From: a virus
Lineage: Duplodnaviria > Heunggongvirae > Uroviricota > Caudoviricetes
Length of the DNA stretch: 47,099 bases
Strand: one strand, 5' to 3'
Virus record (IMG/VR): IMGVR_UViG_2534681604_000006
Location: 1-47,099 of that record
The notes beneath the pieces were generated by a model. The model was not told the origin of the DNA. It ran no database searches and saw only the letters and a program-made list of their open reading frames with translations. A program made the translations under genes and the position numbers. Of this stretch, positions 20,581 through 43,712 are shown one piece after another (positions within the stretch are counted from its first letter, which is position 1; the number at the start of each line of letters is the position of its first letter).

Positions 20581-21351
20581 GTGGCAAGACCAAAACTGAA
20601 AGCGGAAGAGCGTTTTGACCAGTTGGTTAAGATAATCAATAGTGGTCAACCTCTTGATATTTGGACCTTTCGAGAGGTGGTCTCGGAGTATGGCTCTAAG
20701 CGTACTCCGCCTGCTGACACGCTTGTAGCTTTGGCTCATATTGCTAAAGGTGATGTGAGTGTCGGGATTGAAATGCTTGAAGCTATCCTCCCACATGCTG
20801 ATGTTAACTTTGCGCGGATTTTTTGTAAGCTGCTTGAGCGTTTTTCTCTACTCGAAAAATCGGACTACTACATCTATTCTTTAGCTGATAAGTATCCAAC
20901 CAAGTGGTTTACTTATAGGGCTGGTGGCGTTGCGTATTTGGTAGGGAAACTATCAAAATGCGTAGAATATTTTGGACGTCATTGCAAAATGTTATCCCAA
21001 GAAGAACATAGGGATGACGCAGAAGCCTTCTTGCAGGAGGTAATTCACGATATGGATGAAGCATACAAAAAGTCAGGATGCTCTTCAGAACAATACATGC
21101 AAGTTGCTCTTGCTGTTCATAGAGTCATGGCTGAATTCCCTCCAACTGAATATCGTGCTGACATCAACGGTGCATCTGGTGGGACTTATCTGGTTGAGGT
21201 AGTTAATGCATCCCCTGAACAGGTGGTTGCAATGAATATGCGACTTGCAGATGAAATTTGTTCAATCGATTTACTTGATGATTGCAATCTTATTGCACGT
21301 TTTTCCGTTGAAAGAAATAGCTTGAAAGGGTGTAAATATGCCTATAACTAG
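20581..21351 (+). CDS. Hypothetical protein, moron gene A
   Basis: 256 aa from GTG at 20581; helical, no TM segment or recognisable catalytic motif; interrupts the baseplate operon. Confidence 0.55.
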   Translation: MARPKLKAEERFDQLVKIINSGQPLDIWTFREVVSEYGSKRTPPADTLVALAHIAKGDVSVGIEMLEAILPHADVNFARIFCKLLERFSLLEKSDYYIYSLADKYPTKWFTYRAGGVAYLVGKLSKCVEYFGRHCKMLSQEEHRDDAEAFLQEVIHDMDEAYKKSGCSSEQYMQVALAVHRVMAEFPPTEYRADINGASGGTYLVEVVNASPEQVVAMNMRLADEICSIDLLDDCNLIARFSVERNSLKGCKYAYN

Positions 21352-21733
21352 CTCTGAGTTTTTATCTTCAGCGGAGCGTTGCTTTGCGGAGGATTCTGAA
21401 GTTGGTTATCGTAATACTATTTCGCGGGCATATTATGCGCTTTACCATGAAATAAAAGAGAATCTGACCAGTCTTCCTGCTTATACGAAGGATCATCATT
21501 CCAGTCTTATCTCTTATCTTAAAAATAAGAGTGAAAACAAACTGGAGCCATATGATCCATTAAGCCTAAAATCCATGGCTTACAAACTTGAGCAACAGAG
21601 ACTGGCTCGAAATGAAGCAGATTATGACCTCACTAGCTGTGCAATAGATAAAGCAATGGCACAGCAATCTCTCTTAGAGGTTAAGACTATTTTTTCTCAG
21701 TGGGAAAAAATGAAGACTGATGAAGCTGTTTAA
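21338..21733 (+). CDS. Hypothetical small helical protein, moron gene B
   Basis: 131 aa; overlaps gene A by 14 nt; N-terminal SRAYYALYH; followed by a strong terminator. Confidence 0.55.
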   Translation: MPITSSEFLSSAERCFAEDSEVGYRNTISRAYYALYHEIKENLTSLPAYTKDHHSSLISYLKNKSENKLEPYDPLSLKSMAYKLEQQRLARNEADYDLTSCAIDKAMAQQSLLEVKTIFSQWEKMKTDEAV

Positions 21734-24102: not shown

Positions 24103-24779
24103 GCAAATACACCGAACTAATCACGAACTACCACGCCACCAAACCTAAATTTCTTGCGCATGTTGATCTGATGACCCGGCCGCTTATTGATGTTGCGGCT
24201 GCCACCAGAGGGCTGATTACTGCATTTGATATTGACTCTGCGGTTGGTGTGCAACTTGACATTCTGGGATTGTGGATCGGACGTAGCCGTGTTGTCAGCC
24301 AGCCTATCTCAGGTGTCTATTTCAGCTGGGATACCGACGGGCTTGGATATGATCAGGGGGTATGGCAGGGGCCATATGATCCTGATTCCGGATACATGTA
24401 CCTCAGCGATGAAACTTATCGTGTCATCCTTAAAGCGAAGATTGCGATTAATAACTGGGACGGACGGAATGATTCGCTTCCGGCAATTCTTGACACGGCG
24501 ACAGCAGGATCCGGGCTGCGAATGCAGATAGTCGATAACCAGGACATGACGATATCGGTCTGGGTCTTTCCTGATACAGATATTTCAGATGTATCGCGTG
24601 AGTTAATTGCGGCAATTAAACAGGGGTATCTCACAGTAAAAGCCGCCGGGGTATGGGCGGGTGGCATTGAAACACCTTCGGTGGAAACCCCATCGGAAGG
24701 CTCAAAATTTTTTGGTTTTGATATGGATAACGAATTCATCAGTGGTTTTGATGTAGGAGCATGGGGAGTATTACTCTGA
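24099..24779 (+). CDS. Baseplate/tail protein (I-like)
   Basis: 226 aa preceding the tail fibre. Confidence 0.6.
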
Positions 24780-25489
24780 TGGCGAAAAATGACTTTAAAG
24801 CGTTTGCAACGGATCGAAATGCCAATGTTATATCGCAGGAGGAATGGGAAGCGTTGCCCGCGCTTTTATCCGGATTTACAGCAGGGAAAGCCTCCAGTGC
24901 GCAAGTCAATAAGGTTATTCGGCAGGCCAGCTTTATTGCTGCAGCTCTGGCCCAGTTTGTAAGTGATAAAACGCAACGGGATGTGCTTGATAATGGTGAT
25001 CTGCCCGGTTTTGTTGAATTGCTGGGATCGGGGTTTGCTGTTGAATACCTGAGCCGCAAGAATCCGTTTGGTGATATCAAATCGGATGGCACGGTGAAAA
25101 CGGCTCTCGAAAACCTTGGTTTGGGAGAAGCGGCAAAACGGGATGTGGGCACAGGGGAAAATCAGATACCGGACATGGTTTCATTTAGTGGGGTGAGGGA
25201 TTATTACGGAAAACAACTTTTGCCAGGAGGGTTGATACTCCAGTGGCTGACGATTCCATCAAGTGCAGCAGCCAAAGCTGTAACACTGAATAATGGTAAT
25301 TATCAGCTGTCAGGTTATAAATGGCCCCAGTCATTTGGTGTCCTGTTTGCTGTGTTTGCCACAAAAGTTTCTGGCTCGACTAACGAAGCATACGCAATCT
25401 CAGTTAATCGTCACTCTACCGATGTAATTGTCACCTGGAATGCCCGTAAGGCTGATGATGTCCACATTTTAGGAATTGGGAAATTATGA
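24779..25489 (+). CDS. Tail fibre protein (constant N-terminus fused to the currently oriented variable C-terminus)
   Basis: ATG at 24779 overlapping the upstream stop; crossover repeat inside the gene at 25116-25141; a paralogous C-terminus is encoded on the opposite strand. Confidence 0.7.
25116..25141. repeat. Left inverted-repeat crossover site of the invertible tail-fibre segment
   Basis: TTGGTTTGGGAGAAGCGGCAAAACGG, perfect reverse complement of 26623-26648. Confidence 0.75.
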
Positions 25490-25905
25490 AAATGAAATGG
25501 TCCCCATCTGTTCAGGGATTTTTCTCTGAAAACAACAGTGATATTCCCGATGATGCTTTCGATATTGAAGATGCTCTTTATTATGAACTTATGAATGGTC
25601 AGAGTACTGGGAAAATTATTATCAATAGCCCGGATAACTACCCTGTACTTACTGAATATCCAGCGAAGACACAGGAACAGGAAATAGCTGAAGCGGAGGG
25701 AATGAAAAATATACTTATTGAACAAGCCAACGATTATATGAACAGTAAACAATGGCCTGGTAAAGCGGCTATTGGCCGGCTGAAAGGTGAGGAACTGGCG
25801 CAATATAATTTGTGGCTGGATTACCTGGACGCACTGGAACTGGTCGATACTTCCGGTGCGCCAGATATTGAATGGCCTACGCCGCCGGCAGTTCAGGCCA
25901 GCTAA
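25486..25905 (+). CDS. Tail fibre assembly protein
   Basis: 139 aa [17 protein letters not shown]...; follows the tail-fibre gene. Confidence 0.7.
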
Positions 25906-26272
25906 TCTCAGGAGCCGTCGAAGTGTCGACGGCTTTTACTTCTTTTTTGTAGTCCATCCAAGCAGATAGTTTTTCTTTATCTGTACTGCTGATATCACCA
26001 AGCATTAACTCCACTCGCCAGTCAGCTGTGACATTATCGGCATGAGCAAGTAACTGCATTCGCTGATTTTCCGCAAGTGCGACATAATCAATCGCCGGGG
26101 ATTTCAGTACCGGTAAACCATTTTCATCTGACGTAATTAATTTACCCCCTTCCTGCTGTCCGGCAATTAATTCATTGTATAAGTCTGTACTTATCTCAAC
26201 AATGTCAGCAGGCATGTCGCTGTTTATACCATCAAAGAAAAAACCATTAGTCGATTTTGAGAAATAAATCAT
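25877..26272 (-). CDS. Alternative tail fibre assembly protein (inverted orientation)
   Basis: Paralogue on the minus strand, MIYFSKSTNGFFFDGIN... from ATG at 26272. Confidence 0.6.
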   Translation of the reverse strand: MIYFSKSTNGFFFDGINSDMPADIVEISTDLYNELIAGQQEGGKLITSDENGLPVLKSPAIDYVALAENQRMQLLAHADNVTADWRVELMLGDISSTDKEKLSAWMDYKKEVKAVDTSTAPEISWPELPAA

Positions 26273-26280
26273 AGATATAC

Positions 26281-26622
26281 CTATACACCGATTGCTACCC
26301 AAAAACAGGACCTTTCATATTTGACAATTTCTCCATGAGATATACCGCCAACAATTATATAGAACTGTGATTTGCTGATATCAGAACAGTTCGCTATGCC
26401 CATTGCAGATATACCAGCCACCGACGTTGTATGTGGCACAGCCAACAGCGCAAGTGAACGATTTGGGAATGTTACCGGGTAAGTCACCGTATAGTTTGAT
26501 GCTCCACTGACAATACCCCACTGAATAATCAGACCTGAAGGGAGTTTTTGAAACCCCGTTGATGAAAGTGAACTGGCAAACGCCGCCATATCCGGAATTT
26601 GGTTTTGCTCGTTACCTACATT
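26281..26622 (-). CDS. Alternative tail-fibre C-terminal variable segment (no own start; expressed only after inversion)
   Basis: Encodes ...[20 protein letters not shown]..., paralogous to the plus-strand tail-fibre C-terminus and beginning at the inverted repeat. Confidence 0.6.
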   Translation of the reverse strand, partial: NVGNEQNQIPDMAAFASSLSSTGFQKLPSGLIIQWGIVSGASNYTVTYPVTFPNRSLALLAVPHTTSVAGISAMGIANCSDISKSQFYIIVGGISHGEIVKYERSCFWVAIGV

Positions 26623-26648
26623 CCGTTTTGCCGCTTCTCCCAAACCAA
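26623..26648. repeat. Right inverted-repeat crossover site of the invertible segment
   Basis: CCGTTTTGCCGCTTCTCCCAAACCAA. Confidence 0.75.
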
Positions 26649-26714
26649 CGTTTATGAAAATGCAGAAATAGCGCGCAAATGGCATCGTTCCTGTTTTTGT
26701 CAGGAGGAGCTATC

Positions 26715-26906
26715 ATGCTTATTGGCTATGTTCGCGTATCAACAAATGACCAGAACACCGATCTACAACGTAATGCGTTGAACTGTGCAGGATGCGAGCT
26801 GATTTTTGAAGACAAGATAAGCGGTACAAAGTCCGAGAGCCTAGGGCTGACACTGCTGTTCTTGATGCAAATTAAAGGATTTAATAGTGAGTTGTGGCCT
26901 TACTAA
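26715..26906 (+). pseudogene. Gin/Hin/Pin-family DNA invertase, truncated after about 40 codons
   Basis: MLIGYVRVSTNDQNTDLQRNALNCAGCELIFEDKISG... then unrelated sequence and a stop; RBS AGGAGGAG; a full invertase is about 190 aa. Confidence 0.7.
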
Positions 26907-26939
26907 TGTAAGGCCGCTATAATCATTTTATTAATTGCA

Positions 26940-28829
26940 TTAATCGTGTTTTGGCCATACTTTCAATGCAATTTCCCCCAACTTTTTACCCCGCTCCAGG
27001 ATTTCACCCTCATCCCATTTATCCTTAAGTATAAGTGGTATGTTCAGTCGTAGATTGGTGTGGACGATGAGAGCATCACGTTTTTTCAGAAATACAGCAT
27101 TCTGAACAGAACGGTTTACGCTAAGGTTAAGCAAAGTTAGATTTCCCAACGTAGCTATCGCTTGTTGCCGTTTCCTTACCAGTAGCTGCTCAGGGGTAAG
27201 ATCTGTTCCAGACAGAACAATTTGGTTCAATACCGTTGCATCTGAATTTGTCACCATATGACCATTTTCGAGAGGCCAACAGGAATACCAACTTTGAGGC
27301 ATAAGATGATCGATATCGAGATTGGAAAGATTTGGAACATCAGGCTTCTCTGTCTTCACTTGGTGACAAAGTTCTCTTTCAAGTTCCGTTAACATTGAGC
27401 GCATTTTCGGTGCGTCGAGCCTGCCAGGATAAAGTGGAGCATTGATGCAAGCATTGAGAAATTCTGAGTCACCAGGCCAACGTGAGGCTTCGCCATTTAA
27501 GCTATTGAGGATATTACGTAACTCAACACTGGAAATTTCCGTTTTAGACAAGTGCCGCAATACATTCATAAATACATTGTTGTAATTCTTTGGCGTCAGG
27601 CCACATACGGCTCTTCGTACTACGTAGGAGACAAGATCATTATACATGGCTGCTTTCTCATCATCGGCGATGTTAGCTATCGAAATGAACAAAGCAAGCG
27701 GATAAAGTGTCGTCACATCATAGGCTGCGATGCGATGTCCAAAGTGTGAGATGGGGGTTGTGCCAAAACCACCAACCAAATCTTTATATTGTGATGCATA
27801 TTGTTTGAGGCGCTTTACTTGCAGATCAGCTCGTTGTGAAGGCAAGTCCTTACTTACATAATCACGATACTCATTGTAAAGACGAGACAGATCAATTTCA
27901 CGTTGCCTTTCTGATTGCAATGTCGCATGCACTAGCCACTCCATGCGTGGTTTATTAATACGTCCACGGCGTTGCCTTTCCGACCAGTATGTATCTTCAA
28001 AGCTCTTCCACTCATTTTCATATAATTCAATAGCATTAATATTTTCATGCTCAGCGCACATAAAGATGTAGTTGCGAATAAGATCCGTGGCATGAAGTTC
28101 CGCCCCTCGGCCATTTAATGTTTCAAAAATTATTTGGGCATCATCTTCAGCTTCGAGAAATATGCTTACCAGTTTCAGATCCGTCAAGACAGCCTCAATT
28201 AGTGCTACAGCATTTTCATGTGGTGAGTACTTTTCTATTTTAATCCATTTTATAAAGGCTTCAGTAAAAAAACATAATGCCTCTAGTGACGGCGGGTGGT
28301 TGAAATGTTTACGTAACGTACCATGTTGCGTGAAGCTATCAGAAAATACATTACGGAGATCGTCAATGTTTTCAACATTAAAACTTTGAATAAAATGAGT
28401 TTGGTCTCGAAAAGTTGGCCACAGTTTGAAGCATTCTACCTTTTTATTTCGCATAGTTGCTTCGTTTGTATTTTTCAAGCAAGTCAATACTAACCCTTCC
28501 AAATCAGAAAGGCCTGTAGCACGCAATGATAATCGAATGGATGCCAGAATATATTGAAGAGTGGTTAAACGTTGCTGGCCGTCAATAATATGTATGGTAT
28601 CTACACCTAACAAGCTGTTTTTGAGTTGAGGTTCCAGCACCACCGCGCCAAGGAAATGGGGAGTTGGTTTTGTTCCCAAAAGTCGGCTATGTGCTTTTTC
28701 GAAGATATCCTCCAGCAAAGCTGACCATTGGTTTTGTTGCGTCCATACGTAGGCACGTTGATAGAATGGAACACGATATTGTCGTTGATTTTGGAAAAGT
28801 TGCTGGATGGTTAGCGTTTCGGATTTCAT
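26940..28829 (-). CDS. GmrSD-like type IV restriction endonuclease (DUF262 + DUF1524 domains)
   Basis: N-terminal DUF262 motifs (FYQRAYVW, IIDGQQRLTT) and C-terminal HNH-like DUF1524 (DIDHLMPQSW); AT-rich. Confidence 0.8.
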   Translation of the reverse strand: MKSETLTIQQLFQNQRQYRVPFYQRAYVWTQQNQWSALLEDIFEKAHSRLLGTKPTPHFLGAVVLEPQLKNSLLGVDTIHIIDGQQRLTTLQYILASIRLSLRATGLSDLEGLVLTCLKNTNEATMRNKKVECFKLWPTFRDQTHFIQSFNVENIDDLRNVFSDSFTQHGTLRKHFNHPPSLEALCFFTEAFIKWIKIEKYSPHENAVALIEAVLTDLKLVSIFLEAEDDAQIIFETLNGRGAELHATDLIRNYIFMCAEHENINAIELYENEWKSFEDTYWSERQRRGRINKPRMEWLVHATLQSERQREIDLSRLYNEYRDYVSKDLPSQRADLQVKRLKQYASQYKDLVGGFGTTPISHFGHRIAAYDVTTLYPLALFISIANIADDEKAAMYNDLVSYVVRRAVCGLTPKNYNNVFMNVLRHLSKTEISSVELRNILNSLNGEASRWPGDSEFLNACINAPLYPGRLDAPKMRSMLTELERELCHQVKTEKPDVPNLSNLDIDHLMPQSWYSCWPLENGHMVTNSDATVLNQIVLSGTDLTPEQLLVRKRQQAIATLGNLTLLNLSVNRSVQNAVFLKKRDALIVHTNLRLNIPLILKDKWDEGEILERGKKLGEIALKVWPKHD

Positions 28830-29548
28830 TATTTACCTATAAGTGACATTCCACAAGAGTAAGAAATTCATCTGAGTCAGAACAATCATTTTTATGTAGT
28901 CATGATACAGTGTATTTGTTGCTGGTGAAGTAAAAACGAGAAATCCCGTTTTTGAATGCTGACGTGCTACGGCTTCATTGGATATTCTCTTTTGTCTCTT
29001 CTCCATTCCGTCGGTGTTTTGTCGAGATTGTTAGCATATTGTTATTGTTGTTTTTTTATCCAAGCGCTGCTCGATCATTGTAGATGGCACTATCGGGTAT
29101 TGAAGCTGCAGACATGTCGTATACAAAAGTCAGTTGCGGTTGGCTGGTGAACTTCCGATAGTGCTAGTATTGAATTATTTCCAGCCGTTATTGATTTTAC
29201 ATGTTTTTTGCATGAAAGGATTAACGCCTCCTCCCACCGACCCTCCATGACTTTACGCCACTATCTCTCAGTCTGCTATGTGCCAGATGCGGATGTTACG
29301 AACAGTTAAATATATTTATATTGCGGGGGCAGTTTAAAAGCATTACGGACGAAAAATTAATCGATCCTTGATAAAATCAGTCCAGCGATGACCATAATTT
29401 ATTCTTTCCTTAAATCAAACAAGTCATCCTTTCCATGGTTGTCTCATAAGTTATCCTTTGAAGAAATGATTAATTATGATGAAATTATGCCTTCTTTATA
29501 CAGTTGAAAAAGTGTTCATCTGCTTTTCTTGGCTAAGGAACAAATAAT

Positions 29549-32500
29549 ATGGATGAAATTTCCAGATTTATTGGAAAGATTGAGGTGCTTCACAAGACAG
29601 GATGTGCAACTGAACATTCGTACAGACCTGCTTTTATTGACCTCATCGAAAGCTTTAATAATGACATAACGGTTTTAAACGAACCTAAGCGCATTGAATG
29701 TGGTGCCCCCGATTTCATTATCCAGCGTGGAAATATTGTCGTTGGTCATTTGGAGGCAAAGGATGTTGGCGTGGATATCCGAAATCTCACAGGGCCGAAC
29801 AAAAAGCAGCAGCAGCGTTATCTTGATGCCCTACCTAATCTCATCTACAGCAATGGCCTCGATTGGGATTTCTACCGTGATGGGCAACTACTGGAATCGG
29901 TTACTATTGGTTCCATGGGGCTAGGTATCAAGTCAGATGCAGGCCAGTTCGACAAGTTGAAATCATTACTGGATGATTTTATTAGCCAGACACCTATCAG
30001 CATTACTAGCCCTCAAGAGTTAGCCGTGCGCATGGCGGGTAAGGCCAAGCTTATCAAACCTGTGTTCTTTAACGCTTTGGATGCTGATCTGCGATCTGGA
30101 AATGATACTGAGCTAGTTTTACAGTACAAGACCTTCAGAGACAACCTTATACACGGTATTGACCCGGAAAGTTTCGCGGATATTTATGCAGAGACCATCT
30201 GCTACGGTATGTTCGCAGCTCGACTACATGACAATACGTTGGATACGTTCAGTCGTCATGAAGCGTTGGACAAGCTACCCAAAACCAACCCGTTCCTAAA
30301 AAATCTATTCAGTTATATAGCTGGAAGCGGGTTAGACGAACGTATTGTTTGGATCATCGACGATCTTGCCGATATTTTTCGGGCAACAGATGTTGCGGCC
30401 ATCATGGCCGGTTTCGGCAAGCTCACTGGCCGACAAGATCCTTTCCTACACTTCTATGAAACCTTCTTGGCCGCTTATGACCCAGACAAACGCAAATCTC
30501 GAGGTGTTTGGTACACTCCGGAACCAATAGTAAATTTCATTGTGCGAGCCGTAGATGAAGTCTTGCAAACCGAGTTTGGTCTTAAAGATGGGCTAGGCGA
30601 TACATCGAAGATAAAAATCCCATGGGACACTGGCCAGCGTAAATTGACCAAGTCTGGTAGACCTACGGCCGATGGAAAAAACTTTATCACCGAAAAAGAC
30701 GTTCACCGGGTTCAGATTCTCGATCCAGCTACCGGCACTGGCACTTTCCTGGCGGAGGTAATCAAGCAGATCGCCCAAAAGGTTAACGATGTAGCGCCTG
30801 GCATGTGGAGTGGCTATGTCGAAAAGGAGTTGATTCCACGCATCCACGGATTCGAAATTATGATGGCCTCCTATGCAATGTGCCACATGAAACTGGACAT
30901 GATACTCACCGAATTGGGTTACAGGCCAAGCAGCAATCCACCGCGCCAATCAATATACCTAACTAACTCACTGGAAGAAGGTGACCCACCTAACTATAGC
31001 TTGCCATTCGCTAGCTGGCTTGCCACCGAAGTGAAACTCGCCAATACCATCAAGCGTGATATGCCTATTATGTGCGTGATTGGCAATCCACCTTATTTGG
31101 GCGAAGGCGGCGTTTCAGAAGGGTGGATTGGTAGACTTATGGACGACTATAAAAAAGAACCCGGCGGTAAGGAGAGGCTTAGGGAACGCAATCCCAAATG
31201 GCTGAATGATCTATATGTGAAGTTCCTGCGTATCTCCTCGCACTGGGTTGAAAAGAACGGTGAGGGTGTCTTGGGATTCATTACCAACCACGGCTATCTG
31301 GATAATCCCACCTTCCGGGGCATGCGTTGGCACTTGCTTCATACTTTTGACAAGATTTGGATTCTGGATTTACATGGCAGTTCCAAAAAGAAGGAGAAAA
31401 CGCCGAACGGTTCCATGGATGTTAATGTCTTCGACATAATGCAGGGGGTGTCCATCATAATCGGCGTTAAGAAAAAGCATAGTGGTAATGGTCTGGCTGA
31501 AGTAATGCGAGGTGATTTGTGGGGCAGTAGGGCGGAAAAATACGAGGCTCTGAGAAATCTTAACTTGACAAACGAGCTTTTCAAAAAAATTGAAATAAGA
31601 CCGCCTCAATATCCCTTTGTTACACAGGACTGGACTGATTTTGAAAGTTATCAGTCCGGATTTCCTATTAATATTTTTATGCCGGTACATGGAAATGGGA
31701 TTGTCACAAAACGGGATAAATTGAATATTCACTTTACTCCTAATGATGTTAAGCAAGTCGTTGAAGATTTCCTGACGCTCAGTGAGTCTGAAGTCCGGAA
31801 TAAATATAAACTTCCAAATGATGTCAGAGACTGGCGATATGAATGGGCTAAACAGGACATCGAAAGCAGGGTGGGAAAAATTCCAGTTCAGAAAATTGGT
31901 TATAGGCTCTTCGATCGTCGTTTTATCTTTTATTCGGGGAAAGCAAGAGGACTTATTGGTTGGCCAGTGGCACATATCATGGAACATTACATTCGTGGAA
32001 AGAATATTGGGTTACTGACCACTAAAGCACATAGAGATGCTGATTTTGCTCATGTATTTATAACTGATCTACCAACGGAAGCCATTCATTTCTCAGCTAC
32101 TAGTGGCTCAAATGCGATGAACTTTCCCCTTTACCTCTATCCGAAAGACGATCTGACAAAGCCCCAAGTTAATTTCGAACCCAAGCTCTTCGCCCGCTTG
32201 CAAAGATTGGCTGCTCATTCTGATTACGGCATACCCAATGAAATCGTTGTCTTTGATTATATTTACGGTGTGCTTCATTGTCCGCTCTACCGCAAGGCTT
32301 ATGCGGAGTTTCTTAAAACTGACTTCCCGCGCATTCCTTGGCCAGCCAGCCCGGATGAGTTTTGGCATGTCTCAGTCAAGGGCGGCGAGTTGCGGCGCTT
32401 GCACCTAATGGAACCATCAGCCATAGGTGATACATCATTTAGCTTCATGGGCGATGGCAATAACGAGGTGGATACCATCGGCAAGGCATCTTTCCGAGAA

Positions 32501-32725
32501 GGCAAGGTTTTTATCAATAAAACCCAGTACTTCGTATACGTTCCGGAGAATGCTTGGAACTTTCGTATCGGTGGCTATCAGCCTGCTCAGAAATGGCTCA
32601 AGGATCGCCAAGGGTGTACTCTGTCATTTGAGGATATAAGGCACTACCAAAGAATTATTAAGGTGCTCATCGAAACTGATCGTATTATGGCAGATATTAC
32701 AATGAATCTGGGTATTAAAGTCTAA
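29549..32725 (+). CDS. Single-chain type IIL/IIG restriction-modification enzyme (MmeI-like)
   Basis: N-terminal PD-(D/E)xK motif (APDFII...GHLEAKD), AdoMet motifs GVWYTPEPIV and ILDPATGTGTF, catalytic NPPY (VIGNPPY), C-terminal target-recognition region. Confidence 0.75.
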   Translation: MDEISRFIGKIEVLHKTGCATEHSYRPAFIDLIESFNNDITVLNEPKRIECGAPDFIIQRGNIVVGHLEAKDVGVDIRNLTGPNKKQQQRYLDALPNLIYSNGLDWDFYRDGQLLESVTIGSMGLGIKSDAGQFDKLKSLLDDFISQTPISITSPQELAVRMAGKAKLIKPVFFNALDADLRSGNDTELVLQYKTFRDNLIHGIDPESFADIYAETICYGMFAARLHDNTLDTFSRHEALDKLPKTNPFLKNLFSYIAGSGLDERIVWIIDDLADIFRATDVAAIMAGFGKLTGRQDPFLHFYETFLAAYDPDKRKSRGVWYTPEPIVNFIVRAVDEVLQTEFGLKDGLGDTSKIKIPWDTGQRKLTKSGRPTADGKNFITEKDVHRVQILDPATGTGTFLAEVIKQIAQKVNDVAPGMWSGYVEKELIPRIHGFEIMMASYAMCHMKLDMILTELGYRPSSNPPRQSIYLTNSLEEGDPPNYSLPFASWLATEVKLANTIKRDMPIMCVIGNPPYLGEGGVSEGWIGRLMDDYKKEPGGKERLRERNPKWLNDLYVKFLRISSHWVEKNGEGVLGFITNHGYLDNPTFRGMRWHLLHTFDKIWILDLHGSSKKKEKTPNGSMDVNVFDIMQGVSIIIGVKKKHSGNGLAEVMRGDLWGSRAEKYEALRNLNLTNELFKKIEIRPPQYPFVTQDWTDFESYQSGFPINIFMPVHGNGIVTKRDKLNIHFTPNDVKQVVEDFLTLSESEVRNKYKLPNDVRDWRYEWAKQDIESRVGKIPVQKIGYRLFDRRFIFYSGKARGLIGWPVAHIMEHYIRGKNIGLLTTKAHRDADFAHVFITDLPTEAIHFSATSGSNAMNFPLYLYPKDDLTKPQVNFEPKLFARLQRLAAHSDYGIPNEIVVFDYIYGVLHCPLYRKAYAEFLKTDFPRIPWPASPDEFWHVSVKGGELRRLHLMEPSAIGDTSFSFMGDGNNEVDTIGKASFREGKVFINKTQYFVYVPENAWNFRIGGYQPAQKWLKDRQGCTLSFEDIRHYQRIIKVLIETDRIMADITMNLGIKV

Positions 32726-32729
32726 AATT

Positions 32730-32759
32730 GTCAGGGCTGCTTTGGCAGCCCTGACTTGC
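32730..32759 (+). terminator. Hairpin/terminator after the restriction-modification gene
   Basis: Perfect 11-bp stem GTCAGGGCTGC tttg GCAGCCCTGAC followed by a T-containing tail. Confidence 0.5.
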
Positions 32760-33074
32760 TCCCAGTAGTTAAATACTCCACGATATTAAAATGCCTTACG
32801 AACTTCCGATTTTCGCTCATAACAGATATTTACTAGAGTTATGGTAGAAGGTATGTATGCTGGTTGGGGATAGTGTGAAAGAAAAGAAGACTGCTGCGCC
32901 GTTTGTCGTCACGTTGATCTTCATTGGCTATGCAAGTCATAATGCAAGGTGGGACAAAACTGAGACACATAAGGCCTCACAATGGCTTGTAAGGCTTTAC
33001 ATATTTTGATATGGAGGGACGTGTGAGCGCAGTGTTGATGGGGTAATACTTTGAATTAGAATCGGATTCTTATA

Positions 33075-33120
33075 ATTCGTAATGCGAAGGTCGTAGGTTC
33101 GACTCCTATTATCGGCACCA
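33075..33120 (+). other. 46-nt copy of the tRNA-Thr(CGU) 3' end, anticodon loop to CCA (prophage attR; attachment site used by the downstream island)
   Basis: ATTCGTAATGCGAAGGTCGTAGGTTCGACTCCTATTATCGGCACCA folds as the 3' two-thirds of a tRNA; the 5' part is absent, so this is not a functional tRNA gene. Confidence 0.75.
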
Positions 33121-33727
33121 TCAAGAAAATCAATAACTTAGCTTAACTTCTCTAAGAAATTGTATCTTCTGTTATCACTTACAAACGCCTATACGTTGTT
33201 ATGGGCTTTGGTAGTGTAACACGTATGGGCGAGTAGTTCACAGGCTCAACCTCGTAACAAGTTCCTTTGAAGCTGGAAGACGTGCCACCGTCTCTAAACC
33301 TTCTACCAAAACTCTTAGCAAGATGTTCCACACCTGGCGCGGTGTCCAATGATGCTACACGTCGTGAGACGTTGCAGAGGATAAACAGGCTAAATGATGG
33401 GAAGAGTTTTAAGTGCAATAGTGGATCAAAGCCCACCTCTTCAAAACCTAACTTGATCGGGAAAGAATCAAGCTCTAGCACGGTTTCGTCCACCGGAGTA
33501 CAACGGGTGCCTGATAAGAGAAGAACTGCTAAGACTTCATAGCTTTTGTGAAAAAGCCCTTTTTAGTGGATACGCCTACGGCGCTTATTTTTTGGGATAG
33601 CCCATCAAAGGCGCTTTATGGCTCCTATTGTCTTGAAAATGTATCTTTACTTGTATTGTGTTTTATGCGTAGTCTCCCTGTGTAGTATGTAACTTGTTAA
33701 TTTTCATATGAATACAGAGGTAACACG

Positions 33728-33886
33728 ATGAAAAACATTGCAGCTATCAAACGTAATAACCGCAAGATTCACGCTCGTAAGTTCCTGTCTACGCCAGAAG
33801 GAAAAGCCTGGCTAGAGCGTAAACAGAGAGAGAACGAAGAAAGAAAACTCCTTAGTGAGTTGAAATGGCTTAGAGAGGATTTCTGA
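33728..33886 (+). CDS. Small basic hypothetical protein (52 aa)
   Basis: ATG at 33728 preceded by GAGG; below the 60-aa cutoff of the ORF track. Confidence 0.3.
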   Translation: MKNIAAIKRNNRKIHARKFLSTPEGKAWLERKQRENEERKLLSELKWLREDF

Positions 33887-34177
33887 AAATCTCCAGAACG
33901 CAACAGGACGCATTCTAACGCTGTTTTCATTGCTTGGTATAGGGATGTATAGGTGATGTGTGTTTAATGCGTCTGTGAGCTTGTTTTGTGCCTTATTTTG
34001 CATTTTCATAATGCAGGAGAGAACACGGAAAACCTTAAAATTAATTATTGGGGTATTTAAGGCTATTTTCAGGTTATTTAAGGGTATTAAACTTGATTTA
34101 ATTGATTAAAATATAAACAGATAATTATGTATCTTATTGATTTATAAGGTTATTTTTAAATAAAGGTAAATAAAAAA

Positions 34178-34227
34178 TAAATAGCCATAAATAGCTATAA
34201 ATACGTCTAAATACATCTAAATACCTA
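34178..34227. repeat. Five tandem 10-bp iteron-like repeats
   Basis: AAATAGCCAT AAATAGCTAT AAATACGTCT AAATACATCT AAATACCTAT, one helical turn apart. Confidence 0.7.
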
Positions 34228-34703
34228 TATCCCTTCCTTATGGCTAGATTGCGAGAGGTGCTTAACGCGATTTTCAGCGCCCCCCGATCTGGAAAATCCA
34301 GAATCCCCAAATATCAGCAAGGAATTTTCTTGCGTAATCAACATCGTTTTTACCTATTAAATCATTACACAGAAAGCCTTTCTGTAATGTCTCTCACTAA
34401 ACTTTCACTAAACACGAGAATGATCGGTTTTATGTCGGATCAGATGCTAGAAACAGCACCACGTCTCACAAGGGCTGTAAGCGATGAAACCAGTGTTTAT
34501 GCGGGTACAGGTCAAAATATAGGCCAAAATCCATTTAACATAATAATCGTAATATGCACTAAGGAACACATAGAACGCCTTGAATTGATGTATCAGGGGA
34601 AAAGTGATGGATTTTTTACGTAGGAGCACGAAAGGGCTTCTATTGACTTTTGTATGTTATGAAATATAATTAAAGGTTTTTTTGTTTTTATCGTGTGATG
34701 TAG

Positions 34704-35150
34704 TGGATTACACAGGGGAATAGATTAAATGGTGTTCTGTTTATACAGGTTTATTTGTTAGATCAACAATTTGGCATTTCTAAACAGATGTTTGAACGTT
34801 GCCAAATGCCTTGACAACACAAGAAAAGGGCTTGCTATGCCACGCATTACACGAAATAAGGCTGTAAAAACAAAATAAATTTTAAAATTTGCACAAACGA
34901 GAGAACTCATTAAGAAACAAGCAGAACAATTTTTAGCCAACAATTTCTGATGGTGCTCTGTAAGCCGCATTACACAAGGCTTTGCGAAAGTGATGTAAAA
35001 GTGAAGAAAGTAAGAATTGCACTTTTAAGCTACTTTTCATTGAATTTTTTAGTATGGAATTACACAGGGAATAGAGAGCATTATTCTATGATTTACACAG
35101 GGAATATAGGGGGATTATGGCACACACATAGAAAGGCATTACACAGAGTG
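34704..35150. repeat. Dispersed ATTACACAGGG(AATA) direct repeats, at least six copies
   Basis: GGATTACACAGGGGAATAG, CATTACACGAAATAAGG, CATTACACAAGG, GGAATTACACAGGGAATAGAG, GATTTACACAGGGAATATAGG, GCATTACACAGAG. Confidence 0.5.
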
Positions 35151-35191
35151 CTATGTGACAAATGGATGTAACGAGAGGTTACATTCAGCTA

Positions 35192-35326
35192 CCCCCACAG
35201 AATTCTGTTAATCTTAACTTTTAAAGAGATTTTTACCCTAACAAAATTCTGTTACCCCACCCTAACAGAATTCTGTTAGACACCCCCACAGAAAACTGTT
35301 AGACACCCCCACAGAATTCTGTTACC
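35192..35326. repeat. Array of five direct repeats each containing the palindrome ACAGAATTCTGT
   Basis: Palindrome copies at 35197, 35241, 35265, 35288 and 35311, the last four at about 23-bp spacing, each flanked by CCC(C/T)...TTA(G)ACA. Confidence 0.7.
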
Positions 35327-36542
35327 TATTAGATCATTTATTAAATTACTTATTAAATTATAATATTATATATTTATTTATATGATCTTTTGCCTTCCGG
35401 CGTTAGCTTCACTCTCTGGCAAGCAGCCTTACTCCGCTACCTTTGGGCTTCGTGGCTGGCCCGTTCCGCTCACACCGAAAGCAAAGCGTTACTTTCTTCG
35501 TGTAACTTCGTTGGCGGTAACGCCCACGAAGAAATACTATTGCGCTGTGCGCAGTAAGAGTAATCACCTAACCAATCATACTGATTGCTTACGTGTTAAC
35601 TCTCTCTAACTCTTAATTACCCTCCTACATTTAATAACTCTGTTATTCTCTGTAGTTGTGTAATTACTCGAAGAGAGAGCGGCTAAAGCTCAATTACACT
35701 CTGCTTTCCTCGTGTAATTTCACTAAGCCTCAATACAATTTCACTTCCTACATTCTGTAGTCGTGTAATTGTTTTCGGTGGAAAAGCCAGAGGCGACACC
35801 GAAAGAGAATTCTGATCTTATTAATCTTATCTATCTTAGTTAATCTTCTTACTTATCTTACTTACTTTATCTACTTTATTATTAATAATAGCTTTATAAG
35901 CTCTGTGTAGCTCTCTGACGCAAGAAACAGCATTCAGGAAGGGAATCACCTTAGAAAAGTGTTCTTTGCGTCATAATGTGTTTTATGAAGGATTCAGAGG
36001 TGTTTCATAACAGGAGTGTATAGAGGATACTTTAGGTAATTAAAAATAAGGGGTCTAAATGCTTCTCTAACAGCATTAAGCAGGGTAGGGAATGGAAACG
36101 CATTGCCTACACATATAAGCTCACTACAGAGCTTTACAGAGCGTTTTATAAAGTGACTCTCTATCTTATATCTACCATCACCTTTTCATATACCTAACAA
36201 ATACAAAATAAGCCCCTTAAATAAGCCTCTGGCGAGCTAAACAACCTCTACATAAGAGAATGTATTGCTTTTATCAAAACTTCGTTAGAACGCGTTTTAG
36301 AGCGTTTTAGACAATAATGAAGAATAGCACTACACAGAAGAGCACGAATAGCTAAGAAAAAATGTAAGTGCATGAAAAAGATCAGTTTTTTTATGGAAAG
36401 GTATTGACAAATGTTTCTTTATATGTAATAATAGGTATTAGAGGGACAGAAAAACATTCTTCTCTAAATAATCAAAATCAATGCACTTTGAAGCCGTCAG
36501 GCTTGCAAGGTGTTTTTCTTTTAACTGAATAAGGAGTTTTTT

Positions 36543-36731
36543 ATGAAATGGTTTACCCCGGAGCACGTCATCTCGGCATTTAAAAAAGGTGAGCTTACAC
36601 GCCATCAAGTAGTAATGAATCGTAATATGGCAAGGAGTCGAGGTTATCCAGAGCGAGCAGCTTGCTTCAATGAAGCACTCAAGATTATTGATGAACTAAG
36701 AAAAAATGAAAAAGAATCTGAAACAGAGTAA
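36543..36731 (+). CDS. Hypothetical small protein, first gene of the island operon
   Basis: 62 aa; strong RBS AAGGAG 8 nt upstream. Confidence 0.55.
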   Translation: MKWFTPEHVISAFKKGELTRHQVVMNRNMARSRGYPERAACFNEALKIIDELRKNEKESETE

Positions 36732-36750
36732 AGAATAGAAGGAGAAAACT

Positions 36751-36918
36751 ATGAGCGAAACTAAGAAACCAATTCCGCGCACTTACCTACACGTTGACCC
36801 TGAAATCTTCAAGGTTTTATTTGCTGAAGCCAAGAAAAGGCAAATTATGGTCAGTGATTTGATGTTAGAAATCATTACTGAAGCAGCAGAGAACATCAAA
36901 CAAAAAAAGGGTAAGTGA
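36751..36918 (+). CDS. Ribbon-helix-helix-like small DNA-binding protein (55 aa)
   Basis: ATG at 36751 with RBS GAAGGAG; N-terminal beta-strand-like RTYLHVDPEIFKV followed by helices; not in the ORF track because it is under 60 aa. Confidence 0.5.
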   Translation: MSETKKPIPRTYLHVDPEIFKVLFAEAKKRQIMVSDLMLEIITEAAENIKQKKGK

Positions 36919-36969
36919 TCCTCATTCACTTTAGTAGCGCATTAAGCGTGATTTATAAGGAGATTTTTA

Positions 36970-37623
36970 ATGATTAATGAAGAACAATTTGTAAAAGTTC
37001 CTATGTGGATTCTAAAAATAAGCCAAGTAAACGGGCATAAATTTACAGATAGTGCTAAAAACCTTTACTGCTATCTGAAAGGGTTTGATCGTGCATTTCC
37101 CTCTTACGCTAAGATAGGCGATGTTTTTGGCATAACACCAAGAGCAGCAGAGGAAAGGGTTAAGAAATTGCTCGAAATGGGATTAATTATAAAAGATGCA
37201 CGACCAGGAAGTTCTAATGTCTATCAAGTGGTAGATATTCCACAAGAAGAAGCTAGACAAGAAGCCAAGACACAACAAGAAGCTACTGTTAAAGCTGTTC
37301 CTGATCAGCTTCCCCCTACGGAAGATAATAAACAGCCTTCTTTTGATGTTCTTGATGATTGGGATGCGCCTTTGCCGTGGGAGACGGAAGAAACACCTGT
37401 TTCATCAAATGAAAAGGTAGCTAATGATAATGAGGAGGATGTGTTAGAGAATTTTGCCTCTCTTATCATCCGGGAGAAACACAGAAGAACAGGAGGATCA
37501 TCATTTATAGACTTTGCAAATTCACTAGCTTATAGACACGGGCTAAAACGACCAAATGGTATTGAGGCATATTTTGCTAAGAAACATCCCAAAGTATATG
37601 AAGACTTTGATATTCCATTTTAA
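36970..37623 (+). CDS. HTH-domain protein, putative replication initiator/organiser
   Basis: 217 aa; N-terminal winged-HTH-like region (KNLYCYLKGFDRAFPSYAKIGDVFGITPRAAEERVKKLLEMGLI), acidic linker, basic C-terminus; RBS AAGGAG. Confidence 0.55.
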   Translation: MINEEQFVKVPMWILKISQVNGHKFTDSAKNLYCYLKGFDRAFPSYAKIGDVFGITPRAAEERVKKLLEMGLIIKDARPGSSNVYQVVDIPQEEARQEAKTQQEATVKAVPDQLPPTEDNKQPSFDVLDDWDAPLPWETEETPVSSNEKVANDNEEDVLENFASLIIREKHRRTGGSSFIDFANSLAYRHGLKRPNGIEAYFAKKHPKVYEDFDIPF

Positions 37624-37634
37624 TAAGGAGGGTT

Positions 37635-37913
37635 ATGATTCAATATTTAGTAAAAAATCAAGTAGACAGAATTCAGTGTAATGACACAGGAAAACGCATC
37701 TATGAAACACTTGCTTACCTCTATAAAGGAAAGCCAACACCGCTAAAATATAGCGATGTGTTACATCGAGCAGGGTGCTCTGAAGATGGTTTAAAATTCT
37801 GGCTTAGACAGCTATCAAATTTCGGTGTTATAGAGATTAAAGAATTATCTTTCTCTACATTCAATCTCAAAAGACTGGATAAAGAAATAGACTTCATCTA
37901 TTCCACTCTCTAA
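37635..37913 (+). CDS. Hypothetical protein
   Basis: 92 aa; RBS AAGGAGGG. Confidence 0.55.
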   Translation: MIQYLVKNQVDRIQCNDTGKRIYETLAYLYKGKPTPLKYSDVLHRAGCSEDGLKFWLRQLSNFGVIEIKELSFSTFNLKRLDKEIDFIYSTL

Positions 37914-38045
37914 AATCTCTCTATGTAATTAAAATATAAAAGGAAAACATTATTATGGTAATAGCTATGTGGTGGTTGTTGTTTTTTATGCTCGTAGAAA
38001 CATACTTCGGGGTGTTTTCCTTTAAAAGAAAAGGAAAAGTAAATA

Positions 38046-38456
38046 ATGGCAAAAAGAAAAAACAACGTTGTTAAGAAGATCGGTGATTCAGCTTCTCTTC
38101 TAAGTAAACCTAAATCTATTCTAAGACGCAAAGACTTTAAAGAGCTAGTTACGCTCACCAAGCAAAATAGCGCCCCTGGCGAATGGAAAACAGAGATTAT
38201 AGAACATTCTCCCTCTGTGCCTTGCGGAGATGAATTTAACGCCTTACAAGAAATCTTATCTTCAACACCTGGCGTATTCTGGAAACCTAGAAAAAGAAAA
38301 GAGTATATCGTTGATAGCTCTGATTTGCGCAAATACCAGATTTTAGGATTTGAAGATTATAATCACTACGTCGGTTATCTCGCCACCAATGGCCTAAATA
38401 ATTTAGTTCCTGAATTCCAAATTTTAGATAATGCTGATCACTATGGAGACTTTTAA
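38046..38456 (+). CDS. Hypothetical protein with basic N-terminus
   Basis: 136 aa; RBS present. Confidence 0.55.
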   Translation: MAKRKNNVVKKIGDSASLLSKPKSILRRKDFKELVTLTKQNSAPGEWKTEIIEHSPSVPCGDEFNALQEILSSTPGVFWKPRKRKEYIVDSSDLRKYQILGFEDYNHYVGYLATNGLNNLVPEFQILDNADHYGDF

Positions 38457-38457
38457 T

Positions 38458-38796
38458 ATGAACAAAAACACGTATGACACAATTTATTCACTAATTAATT
38501 ATTATGAGGATGATTACCTCCTGCCTTTAAACCGCGCTGAACTTGAAGCATACAAAGAAAACACGCCAGCGGCACTAAATGAGGCGTTTAAACACTGGGA
38601 TTTAGCTGTGAATGCCTTTGAGCACCTCTCTAAGCGTGTAGAGATGCTCTGTAAGCGTGAGAACGCATATCTAACAGCGGATCAGCTATTTGAGCTATCA
38701 AACTGGATAGAAGATATTGAATCGGACGTTCGCTATGTGGGAGATGGCCTTATTGAACTAGCTCAACGCTTAGGCGCTGCTATCACAGAAGAATAA
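38458..38796 (+). CDS. Hypothetical protein
   Basis: ATG at 38458 with GGAGA RBS, directly after the upstream stop; ORF track lists 38431 as an upstream alternative. Confidence 0.5.
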   Translation: MNKNTYDTIYSLINYYEDDYLLPLNRAELEAYKENTPAALNEAFKHWDLAVNAFEHLSKRVEMLCKRENAYLTADQLFELSNWIEDIESDVRYVGDGLIELAQRLGAAITEE

Positions 38797-39128
38797 AAAA
38801 AGCAACAAAAAAGTTGTAAAATATCTTGACATTTCATCTATTGTATGTTAATATAATTATATAGGGTGATTATTTTTCCTTTATTGGTTCGATATTAAAA
38901 ATTCTTCTTGTCGTTAAAGGGGAGTAAAATCTCCGCTCCCCGCTTCTCCTCCTTAAGTAAATACTGTGTCATTATTACCTCTTTTTTCCTTTGTTATGCA
39001 TACATCTTGGAGTGTGCATAACATAGGGTAATTACAAAGGCGGCTTTAAATGCTGCCTTTTATTTTGCCCGTTATGCAACTTAAAAGTTGTATTTCTTAC
39101 TTTAAACAAGGTAACAAGGTTTATATAA

Positions 39129-39341
39129 ATGTTGTTTTTAAACGATAAAGAGCAAATCATCAAGTATAAAGATGAAATGCTGAAAATTAATCCACAAATT
39201 ACCGAAATGGTAGCTAAATACGCTGGGTGTTCTGTCGAGGAAGTAGAACGATGTGTTGAAAAATATTTTTCTCCTTCTTCTCCGTCTACACCTTCCATTA
39301 ATGAATTAATCAAATTAAAAGCTAAGGAGATTACTAAATGA
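39129..39341 (+). CDS. Hypothetical small protein
   Basis: 70 aa; stop overlaps the next start. Confidence 0.45.
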   Translation: MLFLNDKEQIIKYKDEMLKINPQITEMVAKYAGCSVEEVERCVEKYFSPSSPSTPSINELIKLKAKEITK

Positions 39342-39700
39342 TTATTGATTTAGACACTCTGTTTCCAGTCCGAAAGACTTTCACAGATATTGTAAGTTAT
39401 TGTACTGATCCGTTTGCCTCTGTAGAAAGCAAGGTTTTTGCTTCTCTTCCTGCTGATGTTGAATGCGGCGACTTGATCACCAGCACTGGCGCTAAATATG
39501 TATCAGGAGATGATATCTATGTTGTTATGAGTGAATTTGTAACGGCTGGAGAAAACAAGCCTGTAGATGTTTTACGTAGCAATGCTGGCCTTGTATGCAT
39601 TAAAGCTGATGCGCTGAATGCTGTAAGTGAAGCAGCAAAAACAGCCTTAATTAAAAAAGGCTTCCAGCTTGAAGGCTTCCACTCTGTTTTCACTTCTTAA
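39338..39700 (+). CDS. Hypothetical protein
   Basis: 120 aa; RBS AAGGAG. Confidence 0.55.
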   Translation: MIIDLDTLFPVRKTFTDIVSYCTDPFASVESKVFASLPADVECGDLITSTGAKYVSGDDIYVVMSEFVTAGENKPVDVLRSNAGLVCIKADALNAVSEAAKTALIKKGFQLEGFHSVFTS

Positions 39701-39718
39701 TAAAAGGAATAATAATAA

Positions 39719-40747: not shown

Positions 40748-40766
40748 TATTTTAACGTGTAATAGA

Positions 40767-40798
40767 GGCGTGGCGTGTATTCACGCTTCGCCTTTTTT
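40767..40798 (+). terminator. Intrinsic terminator after the 342-aa gene
   Basis: Nested GC stems GGCG..GCGTG tatt CACGC..CGCC followed by TTTTTT. Confidence 0.65.
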
Positions 40799-40833
40799 AT
40801 TTATTTTTTTAAATTTTGAGAGGTGATTAAAAT

Positions 40834-41037: not shown

Positions 41038-41051
41038 TAAGGGGATTTTAA

Positions 41052-42884: not shown

Positions 42885-42917
42885 TTCCCGCCATAACATT
42901 ACAAGGAAATTATTATT

Positions 42918-43704: not shown

Positions 43705-43712
43705 TATTGCGT

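Follow-up and report, generated by a model that had tools for sequence, protein, structure and literature searches.

Does an invertible tail-fibre segment stop switching once its own invertase gene has been cut short? The question is raised by the 47,099-nucleotide stretch of viral DNA analysed here (the window; IMG/VR record IMGVR_UViG_2534681604_000006), for which an earlier note, made from the letters of the DNA alone, had proposed a tail-fibre segment frozen in one orientation, unless another invertase acts in trans. The region concerned is the right end of a complete-looking E. coli prophage integrated at thrW, and its features are collected in Table 1.

Table 1. Positions in the window of the tail-fibre cassette, the invertase stub and the cargo up to attR.
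Feature	Position	Strand	Basis or remark
Fibre gene	24779..25489	+	ORF list; constant part outside the segment, variable C-terminus inside; 236 aa
Constant N-terminal part of the fibre (Sc equivalent)	24779..25115	+	Outside the segment; gives both variants their start codon and ~112 first residues
Left 26-bp crossover site, pix-like	25104..25129	.	CTCTCGAAAACC-TT-GGTTTGGGAGAA; central dinucleotide 25116-25117
Invertible segment, 1,533 bp	25116..26648	.	Bounded by perfect 26-bp inverted repeats; both orientations known in other genomes
Expressed variable C-terminus (Sv equivalent), present orientation	25116..25489	+	
Chaperone for the expressed variant (U equivalent)	25486..25905	+	Pfam Caudo_TAP, E=2.4e-22
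Second chaperone (U' equivalent), silent in the present orientation	25877..26272	-	Pfam Caudo_TAP, E=5.2e-24
Terminator-like hairpin between the convergent chaperone genes, segment centre	25910..25937	.	
Alternative fibre C-terminus (S'v equivalent), own start absent in the present orientation	26281..26648	-	Pfam Gp53-like_C, E=2.5e-15
Right 26-bp crossover site, pix-like	26635..26660	.	TTCTCCCAAACC-AA-CGTTTATGAAAA; central dinucleotide 26647-26648
Truncated invertase gene (pinE stub)	26715..26906	+	ATG 26715; unrelated tail up to the stop 26904-26906
Predicted Fis-bound recombinational enhancer	26736..26799	.	Inside the retained stub; ~95 bp from the right site centre
Hairpin at the stub/cargo junction, where transcription of the convergent GmrSD gene probably stops	26896..26915	.	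GGCCTTAC-TAAT-GTAAGGCC, read from the sequence
GmrSD-family type IV (modification-dependent) restriction enzyme, cargo gene 1	26940..28829	-	Pfam GmrSD_N E=7.9e-34, GmrSD_C E=1.2e-18
Single-polypeptide R-M enzyme (Type IIG / 'type ISP' C-terminal specificity domain), cargo gene 2	29549..32725	+	Pfam Type_ISP_C, N6_Mtase, Eco57I
Prophage attR	33075..33119	+	Matches tRNA-Thr (thrW) exactly over its 3' 45 nt

The attR copy lies beyond both restriction genes and so puts the cargo inside the prophage. The same attR repeat is shared between the attL of S3 and the attR of STEC005, and a tandem island begins at attR. An origin of the window prophage as an inter-prophage site-specific recombinant or through a large chromosomal inversion, combining a phage of the A16/611R5 type at the yfhH site with a thrW remnant, was considered and rejected, because the TST3 backbone forms one continuous prophage from thrW and int to attR, with which the window is collinear at 96-99% identity. 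Cassette and cargo are mosaic in the sense that one and the same stub is found behind three different phage backbones and beside different segment alleles.

The repeats that bound the segment are perfect over 26 bp, with TTGGTTTGGGAGAAGCGGCAAAACGG at 25116-25141 returning at 26623-26648 as its exact reverse complement, and are extended by a repeat finder to 68-nt arms of 82% complementarity. A perfect 26-mer inverted repeat within a span of 1.5 kb is far beyond what is expected by chance. The two crossover sites have the inner half-site and the TT/AA core in common. Between the inner half-site of the left one and the repeat published for the e14 P segment, TTGGTTTGGGAGAAGG, 15 of 16 bases agree (PMC12529663). 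When aligned, the right site is the same as the right sites of e14 and Cartapus without any difference, and the sites of the window agree with those of e14 and Mu. The site arrangement of the Din systems, i.e. two inverted 26-bp sites, each with 12-bp half-sites around a 2-bp core, is therefore found at this locus.

The gene content of the segment follows the same scheme. The fibre ATG at 24779 overlaps the stop codon of the DUF2612 gene that precedes it; in 611R5 and A16 the annotated fibre start is the same. No Pfam family was matched by the expressed C-terminus (25116-25489), annotated in relatives as 'hypothetical protein / phage tail protein'. Inversion of the segment in silico keeps the reading frame and gives an intact alternative fibre of 234 aa instead of the present 236 aa, behind which the 131-aa ORF of the second chaperone is then located. 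Both fusion ORFs are intact, and the alternative C-termini and chaperones are mirrored behind an external constant N-terminus, as in the Din systems. The constant N-terminus reads into the segment, the orientation of which picks the C-terminus, each with its own chaperone behind it. In short, the cassette belongs to a known kind of system, the invertible tail-fibre (host-range) switch of e14/Mu type, and is an ordinary example of it.

Of the invertase gene, only a stub is left. Its ORF (26715-26906) matches the Resolvase N-terminal domain only (Pfam), and tblastn with an intact invertase found residues 1-49 alone, at 26715-26861. Residues 1-41 are those of K-12 PinE without difference, and the resemblance fades out by codon ~49 (26861); against intact pinE genes in general, homology stops at approximately 26836-26861. 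With 49 of ~184 codons present, the catalytic Ser is kept and the rest of the catalytic domain, as well as the DNA-binding domain, is gone. The complete serine recombinase that adjoins the sites in Din systems, having catalytic and C-terminal helix-turn-helix domains, is represented here by residues 1-49 only, and a second invertase homologue was not found by tblastn anywhere in the 47-kb window. In relatives, PGAP labels the stub a pseudogene, 'incomplete; missing C-terminus'. Recombinase cannot be produced from such a gene. With the cassette's own invertase dead, the locus is what remains of a Din system rather than a self-sufficient member. The anatomy described in the earlier note holds up well. 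Its perfect 26-bp inverted repeats are exact reverse complements, its two fibre C-termini and two assembly genes in mirror order are recovered by ORFs, Pfam and in-silico inversion, and its Gin/Cin/Pin-type host-range switch agrees with both the sites and the mirrored fibre/chaperone sets. The approximately 40 N-terminal residues that it had allowed the invertase are 1-49 by tblastn (1-41 identical to K-12 PinE), and the ORF does diverge into a stop at the junction, running into defence cargo.

The first gene of this cargo was recognised by PADLOC as mREase_IV (full-length match, 1473 bits). Judged from its domains, the predicted product is a GmrSD enzyme, with an N-terminal DUF262 (ParB-like NTPase) and a C-terminal DUF1524 (HNH-like nuclease) in one polypeptide. 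The hairpin that separates it from the stub is kept in STK78-E and S3, and was not called by a simple terminator scan. The best PADLOC models for the second gene are Type IIG (REase_MTase_IIG, E=1.7e-281), and its 1,058-aa product, named Type ISP by PGAP in relatives, contains Type_ISP_C and N6_Mtase. Type ISP enzymes (LlaGI/LlaBIII) unite nuclease, helicase-like ATPase motor, methyltransferase and target-recognition domains in ~1,570 aa. No ATPase/helicase family was matched by Pfam in the product of the window, and Type IIG-like would be the better label for the enzyme. A replacement or deletion of old date cut the serine invertase gene after ~49 codons and, by the same event, fused the stub to the defence cargo (GmrSD and the R-M gene) between the invertase gene and attR.

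The stub-cargo junction is widespread. It is present at 95-100% identity in 286 of the 5,426 complete E. coli genomes (~5%); among 50,697 records of isolated phages, no stub-GmrSD junction was found. That the truncation or the differences in orientation are artefacts of assembly or sequencing is hardly conceivable. Nothing specific speaks for it, although cultures can mix orientations and the assembler outputs the majority form, and it is contradicted by the identical junction in 286 independent complete genomes as well as by the repeats of TST3 and TBE6, which are too short to mislead an assembler. The sequencing error in the invertase ORF, which the earlier note had named as a possible refutation, can be put aside on the same ground; the truncation is real.

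Whether the segment can still invert is answered by relatives carrying the same stub. The backbones of TST3 and TBE6 are 96-99% identical to the window over 84% of window positions 1-25200, and both carry its stub-GmrSD junction. When the two are compared with each other, the flanks show 100% identity over 8,725 nt to the right and 355 nt to the left, and the 3,167-bp segment between them, a shared ISVsa5 insertion included, is inverted at 99.97% identity. Because their inner half-sites are unlike (GGTTTGGGAGAA vs GGTTTAAGAGCA), the exchange can be mapped to 7 nt, TTGGTTT, with the central dinucleotide. This stretch is too short for RecA and is where the Pin-type enzyme family cuts. In S3, the segment of the window itself (98.4-99.0% identity) is flipped beside a 100%-identical stub junction, and its orientation in STEC005 and STK78-E is opposite to that in S3. 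Inversion at the site centres, another property of Din systems, is accordingly seen in stub-bearing relatives, both in the breakpoints of TST3/TBE6 and in S3 compared with STEC005/STK78-E. Since both orientations occur beside the same stub junction in near-identical loci, inversion took place later than truncation.

Opposite orientations could in principle also result from RecA recombination between the repeats, or from homologous replacement of the cassette by that of another prophage, with no site-specific inversion in trans. The clear mosaicism of cassette and cargo, with three backbones and different segment alleles, would be in line with this, and the repeats of the window and S3, being perfect over 26 bp, make the crossover point unmappable there. 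However, the 7 contiguous bases shared by the TST3/TBE6 repeats at the exchange are far below the need of RecA, and an imported cassette would lose the shared IS and the 99.97% identity of these two genomes. We consider such an origin very improbable.

The flips in the stub-bearing relatives are presumably due to Pin-family invertases acting in trans, and it would be an enzyme of this family that inverts the segment in these lineages. No other serine recombinase is annotated in the whole TST3 prophage. Action across prophages has been published for the family: the e14 P segment is inverted by each of PinQ, PinR and PinE, Fin inverts the Hin segment, and the G segment of Mu as well as the H segment of Salmonella are substrates of PinE (PMC12529663). 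We therefore regard the cassette as, in all likelihood though not with certainty, an orphan P-segment-type switch, in which the cis parts are intact and self-switching is lost, and which is still invertible by a related invertase from another prophage in the same cell.

How often this happens is another matter. At truncated loci, the orientation is that of the window in 14-17 cases and flipped in one; where the segment allele is the same but the junction is absent, in most cases with a complete invertase gene alongside, the corresponding numbers are 41 and 25 (Fisher p 0.03-0.009, uncorrected for relatedness). The skew suggests slower switching at the truncated loci. When pinE is deleted in K-12, the e14 segment is locked at native PinQ/PinR levels (PMC12529663), so that, unless induced, inversion in trans may be a rare event. 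The 14-17:1 skew agrees with rare inversion in trans.

The same observations may be read more strictly, the segment being truly frozen in the source strain, with a compatible invertase not expressed and the 236-aa fibre as the only one made by the prophage. The dead cis invertase, the window devoid of any other, the orientation skew with its p values uncorrected for relatedness, and the K-12 pinE mutants reported as locked at native PinQ levels (PMC12529663) all point in this direction. Flips have, however, followed truncation in at least two lineages, and several Pin-family loci are found in most E. coli: 2,666 of the 5,426 genomes gave matches to the fibre/pin query, at a median of 2 places in each, and PinQ/PinR, which are beyond the reach of megablast through divergence, act on pix sites as well. 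Complete freezing is on balance unlikely. Such second loci can themselves be damaged, as in ARS-C101, where another pin locus, at the e14 site, is frameshifted. The 'frozen' segment of the earlier note is therefore only half retained: its own invertase is dead and a much reduced rate of switching fits the skew, whereas locking as a property of the allele is contradicted by the flips of TST3/TBE6 and S3. By virtue of these post-truncation flips, the caveat about another invertase acting in trans becomes the operative case, and the search for other Gin/Hin/Pin-family invertases that had been recommended, run on the 47-kb window, returned none besides the stub.

For an orphan switch of this kind to work, its cis elements have to be in place, and they appear to have survived: the two 26-bp crossover sites, and that 5' stretch of the invertase gene in which the Fis enhancer of the family is expected and would still function. 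Over positions 26649-26839 (191 bp), the window has 91% identity with e14 from the right site into the 5' region of pinE, and in alignments the predicted enhancer differs from e14 pinE at 2 positions only and is conserved in Mu gin. The Mu enhancer was reportedly located within the invertase gene by Kahmann et al. in 1985. The exact Fis cores in 26736-26799 are putative, being placed after the hin sequence. Third-codon-position conservation among the three genes compared (gin, pinE and the Cartapus invertase) is mildly raised in codons 1-15 only. The Hin enhancer comprises 65 bp at a native distance of 99 bp from hix, with ATTTA/TAATG between the Fis sites (PMC3798978), and the spacing of ~95 bp predicted here is compatible with the published ~99-100 bp. 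It is tempting, if rather doubtful, to go further and suppose that the stub may be retained for the enhancer, as well as for the outer half-site of the right crossover. The cassette would then be a host-controlled switch beside a defence hotspot of GmrSD and variable cargo, flipped only on induction of the invertase of another prophage (e.g. PinQ/PinR during phage attack, cf. the published PinQ-e14 adsorption-blocking system), and the stub would also be a conserved left anchor for swaps of defence cargo between prophages at thrW.

Loss of the invertase gene by itself does not freeze a phage host-range switch; dependence shifts to the other prophages of the cell. The type of tail fibre, and possibly adsorption-related phenotypes, can in this way hinge on cross-talk between prophages. 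In annotation, an invertase pseudogene next to an invertible segment should not be taken to mean 'fixed orientation'. In addition, the stub of this widespread truncated allele is a landmark for the border of a variable region of anti-phage cargo by the thrW attR.

Among the known systems, the P segment of e14, the cryptic prophage of K-12, shares with the window the order of fibre, chaperone, chaperone', fibre', invertase and a type IV restriction gene by attR, the cargo here holding the place of mcrA beside pinE. The crossover core, an identical right site and PinE residues 1-41 are also common to both, and e14 itself is invertible by the invertases of other prophages. Unlike in e14, the invertase of the window is cut at codon ~49 and the segment alleles differ; the restriction gene is of GmrSD type on the opposite strand and followed by an R-M gene, whereas e14 has McrA; and the prophage is a complete-looking one at thrW with a DUF2612-type baseplate backbone, e14 being integrated at icd. 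Similarly to the G segment of Mu with Gin and the C segment of P1 with Cin, a constant N-terminus is combined with two C-termini and mirrored chaperones between 26-bp sites, and the invertase gene, conserved in its 5' coding region, is directly outside the right site. Mu and P1, however, have a functional invertase and much longer fibres, and in Mu com/mom stand behind the invertase in place of the restriction genes found here. The closest parallels to the proposed mode of action are PinQ/PinR on e14 and Fin of Fels-2 on the Salmonella H segment, where the invertase comes from another prophage, and it is on such action that the cassette described here must rely. In those cases a cis invertase is present and the action in trans is redundant, whereas here it would be obligatory.

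The 1,533-bp invertible tail-fibre segment (25116-26648) is bounded by TTGGTTTGGGAGAAGCGGCAAAACGG at 25116-25141 and by its exact 26-nt reverse complement at 26623-26648, as the earlier note had described, and a repeat finder extends the arms of the inverted repeats to 68 nt at 82% complementarity. The two pix-type crossover sites read CTCTCGAAAACC-TT-GGTTTGGGAGAA (left) and TTCTCCCAAACC-AA-CGTTTATGAAAA (right). ORFs and domain matches also agree with the proposed mirror order of two fibre C-terminal variants and two assembly genes, the convergent chaperone genes being separated by a terminator-like hairpin. As now oriented the fibre has 236 aa; with the segment inverted in silico, the alternative fibre is likewise intact, at 234 aa, and has a chaperone of its own behind it.

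Genes of the fibre cassette, the defence cargo and the neighbouring island
Feature	Position	Strand	Remark
Tail-fibre gene	24779-25489	+	Start outside the segment
Caudo_TAP chaperone gene	25486-25905	+	After the fibre gene
Second Caudo_TAP chaperone gene	25877-26272	-	Strand opposite to fibre gene
Gp53-like_C fibre C-terminus	26281-26648	-	Strand opposite to fibre gene
Invertase ORF right of the segment (stub)	26715 (ATG)-26906 (stop)		Only N-terminal part of Resolvase domain matched
GmrSD-family type IV restriction enzyme	26940-28829	-	First defence gene downstream of stub
Single-chain R-M enzyme, 1,058 aa	29549-32725		Second defence gene
Island tyrosine integrase	43713-45047	-	

The cassette's own invertase is dead. 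Residues 1-49 of the intact invertase map to 26715-26861 (tblastn against the 47-kb window), over residues 1-41 the stub does not differ from E. coli K-12 PinE, and similarity to intact pinE genes ends at approximately 26836-26861, which bears out the suggested reduction of the ORF to its N-terminal residues. No other invertase homologue was found in the 47-kb window by tblastn with the intact invertase. The truncation is no artefact; it is old and widespread. With a 502-bp query across the stub and the GmrSD gene end (coverage at least 80%), the junction, where the stub is joined to the GmrSD gene, was counted in 286 of the 5,426 complete E. coli genomes, with identities of 95-100%. Every stub copy inspected retains exactly residues 1-49, and in RefSeq relatives PGAP calls the stub a recombinase pseudogene without its C-terminus. 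The junction was absent from the isolated phages among 50,697 phage records. The window-type backbone with a full-length pinE occurs in E. coli strain A16, at a different integration site. Invertase decay is recurrent: in phage record vB_EcoM-611R5 (L003 10307-10642) the invertase was independently cut after residue ~112, and strain ARS-C101 has a frameshifted invertase at the e14 site (L009 3567-4115) in addition to the thrW stub.

The death of the invertase may not have locked the segment, which the earlier note took to be frozen unless another invertase acts in trans: in related strains the cassette has demonstrably flipped since the truncation. Strains TST3 and TBE6, both from a single study, have in common the backbone, the stub and the GmrSD and retron proteins. 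Identity is 100% in their flanks (8,725 nt and 355 nt), and the 3,167-bp segment between the sites is inverted at 99.97% identity. ISVsa5 lies within the segment in one and the same fibre variant of both strains (L006 562-1770 and L007 2098-3306); it knocks out one fibre form of the two and moves along with the inversion. The inversion is thus younger than the truncation as well as the IS insertion. Since the inner half-sites of the two strains differ, the exchange is confined to the 7-nt TTGGTTT with the central dinucleotide; seven bases are insufficient for general recombination, and the position of the exchange is that of the serine invertase cut. In strain S3, the window's 1,533-bp segment is flipped (98.4% identity to the window and 99.0% to strain STK78-E) and adjoins a 100%-identical stub junction, and strains AH62 and 14EC001 have 1.25 kb of segment sequence in common in opposite orientations. 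No second serine recombinase is annotated in the TST3 prophage. The e14 segment is inverted by PinQ, PinR and PinE alike, PinE also acts on the G segment of Mu and the H segment of Salmonella, and the latter is likewise a target of Fin (PMC12529663). Because these published Pin and Fin enzymes act across elements, inversion in trans is the simplest explanation for the flipped cassettes of the related strains.

At truncated loci the switch looks sluggish. A K-12 strain mutated in pinE is reported to be locked when PinQ is at native levels (PMC12529663). Where the segment allele accompanies the truncated junction, 14-17 genomes are window-oriented and one is flipped; beside any pin 5' region the numbers are 55 and 26, leaving by subtraction 41 and 25 at loci without the truncated junction. 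The difference in orientation skew with and without the junction gives a Fisher p of 0.03-0.009, the genomes being non-independent samples.

In this family of enzymes the Fis-bound enhancer is part of the invertase gene itself, according to the title of a 1985 paper by Kahmann et al. The Hin enhancer is 65 bp long, at a distance of about 99-100 bp to the closest site (PMC3798978). In the window, a predicted enhancer stretch would occupy ~26736-26799, some 95 bp from the centre of the right site, and this stretch falls well within the 49 codons kept. A synonymous-site test gave no added support for this placement, which is inferred from homology and from the hin enhancer sequence.

The window belongs to an E. 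coli prophage with lambda-like nin genes as well as portal, capsid, sheath-like, tape-measure and baseplate genes. Positions 1-25200 are 96-99% identical over 84% to the complete TST3 prophage, which starts with tRNA-Thr (thrW) and an integrase and extends as far as the fibre cassette. Genes for tRNA-Asn(GTT) and tRNA-Thr(TGT), both also found in the TST3 prophage, are located at 2015-2170, upstream of the lysis/terminase region. At 20581-21733 the baseplate operon is interrupted, between hub-like genes and the spike gene, by two overlapping low-GC ORFs (256 and 131 aa; no match in Pfam or PADLOC); their place is taken by a DUF4282 gene in TST3 and by two other hypothetical genes in A16, and it appears to be a moron slot in the tail module.

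The 45 nt at 33075-33119 repeat the 3' end of thrW exactly and represent the prophage attR; the AT-rich cargo therefore resides within the prophage, flanked by the invertase gene and attR. The stub and GmrSD are constant there, and the slot between GmrSD and attR (28830-33074 in the window) is variable (L006, L010-L013), containing the R-M enzyme in the window, retron Ec67 reverse transcriptase in TST3 and TBE6, and small unknown genes elsewhere. The top PADLOC models for the R-M enzyme are Type IIG, and no ATPase/helicase domain was detected in its 1,058 aa; RefSeq calls an identical protein 'type ISP restriction/modification enzyme'. The stub-cargo module is found behind at least three tail-module types, namely the e14/SfV-like YmfQ type, the DUF2612 type (as in the window) and the lambda-like gpJ-Lom-Stf type. 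In strain 167 (L008 1908-6240), the stub and an invertible fibre end stand behind a lambda-like gpJ-Lom-long side-tail-fibre module, and the stub is followed by IS903B, not GmrSD. A separate 12-kb low-GC integrative island (~33075-45170) is arranged in tandem with the prophage, starting from the att copy derived from thrW. Besides the tyrosine integrase, its products are a Dit-like 'baseplate' protein, an HTH protein, a homologue of major capsid protein E and an unknown protein of 610 aa. The island occurs in 158 complete E. coli genomes, directly follows thrW in strain 2022E04-002, and looks like a phage satellite.

For a cassette dependent on invertases made elsewhere, 'orphaned' fits better than 'locked'. 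What is new is modest: the orphan cassette is still recombination-competent, and a variable defence-gene region at the thrW attR has the stub as its boundary. Systems of this kind have long been known, and the truncated allele is common and already marked as a pseudogene in RefSeq. The window cassette shares its inner half-site with the published e14 repeat (PMC12529663), a 191-bp stretch starting at the right site and entering the invertase gene is 91% identical to e14, and in e14 the position equivalent to the window's cargo is held by mcrA, beside pinE.
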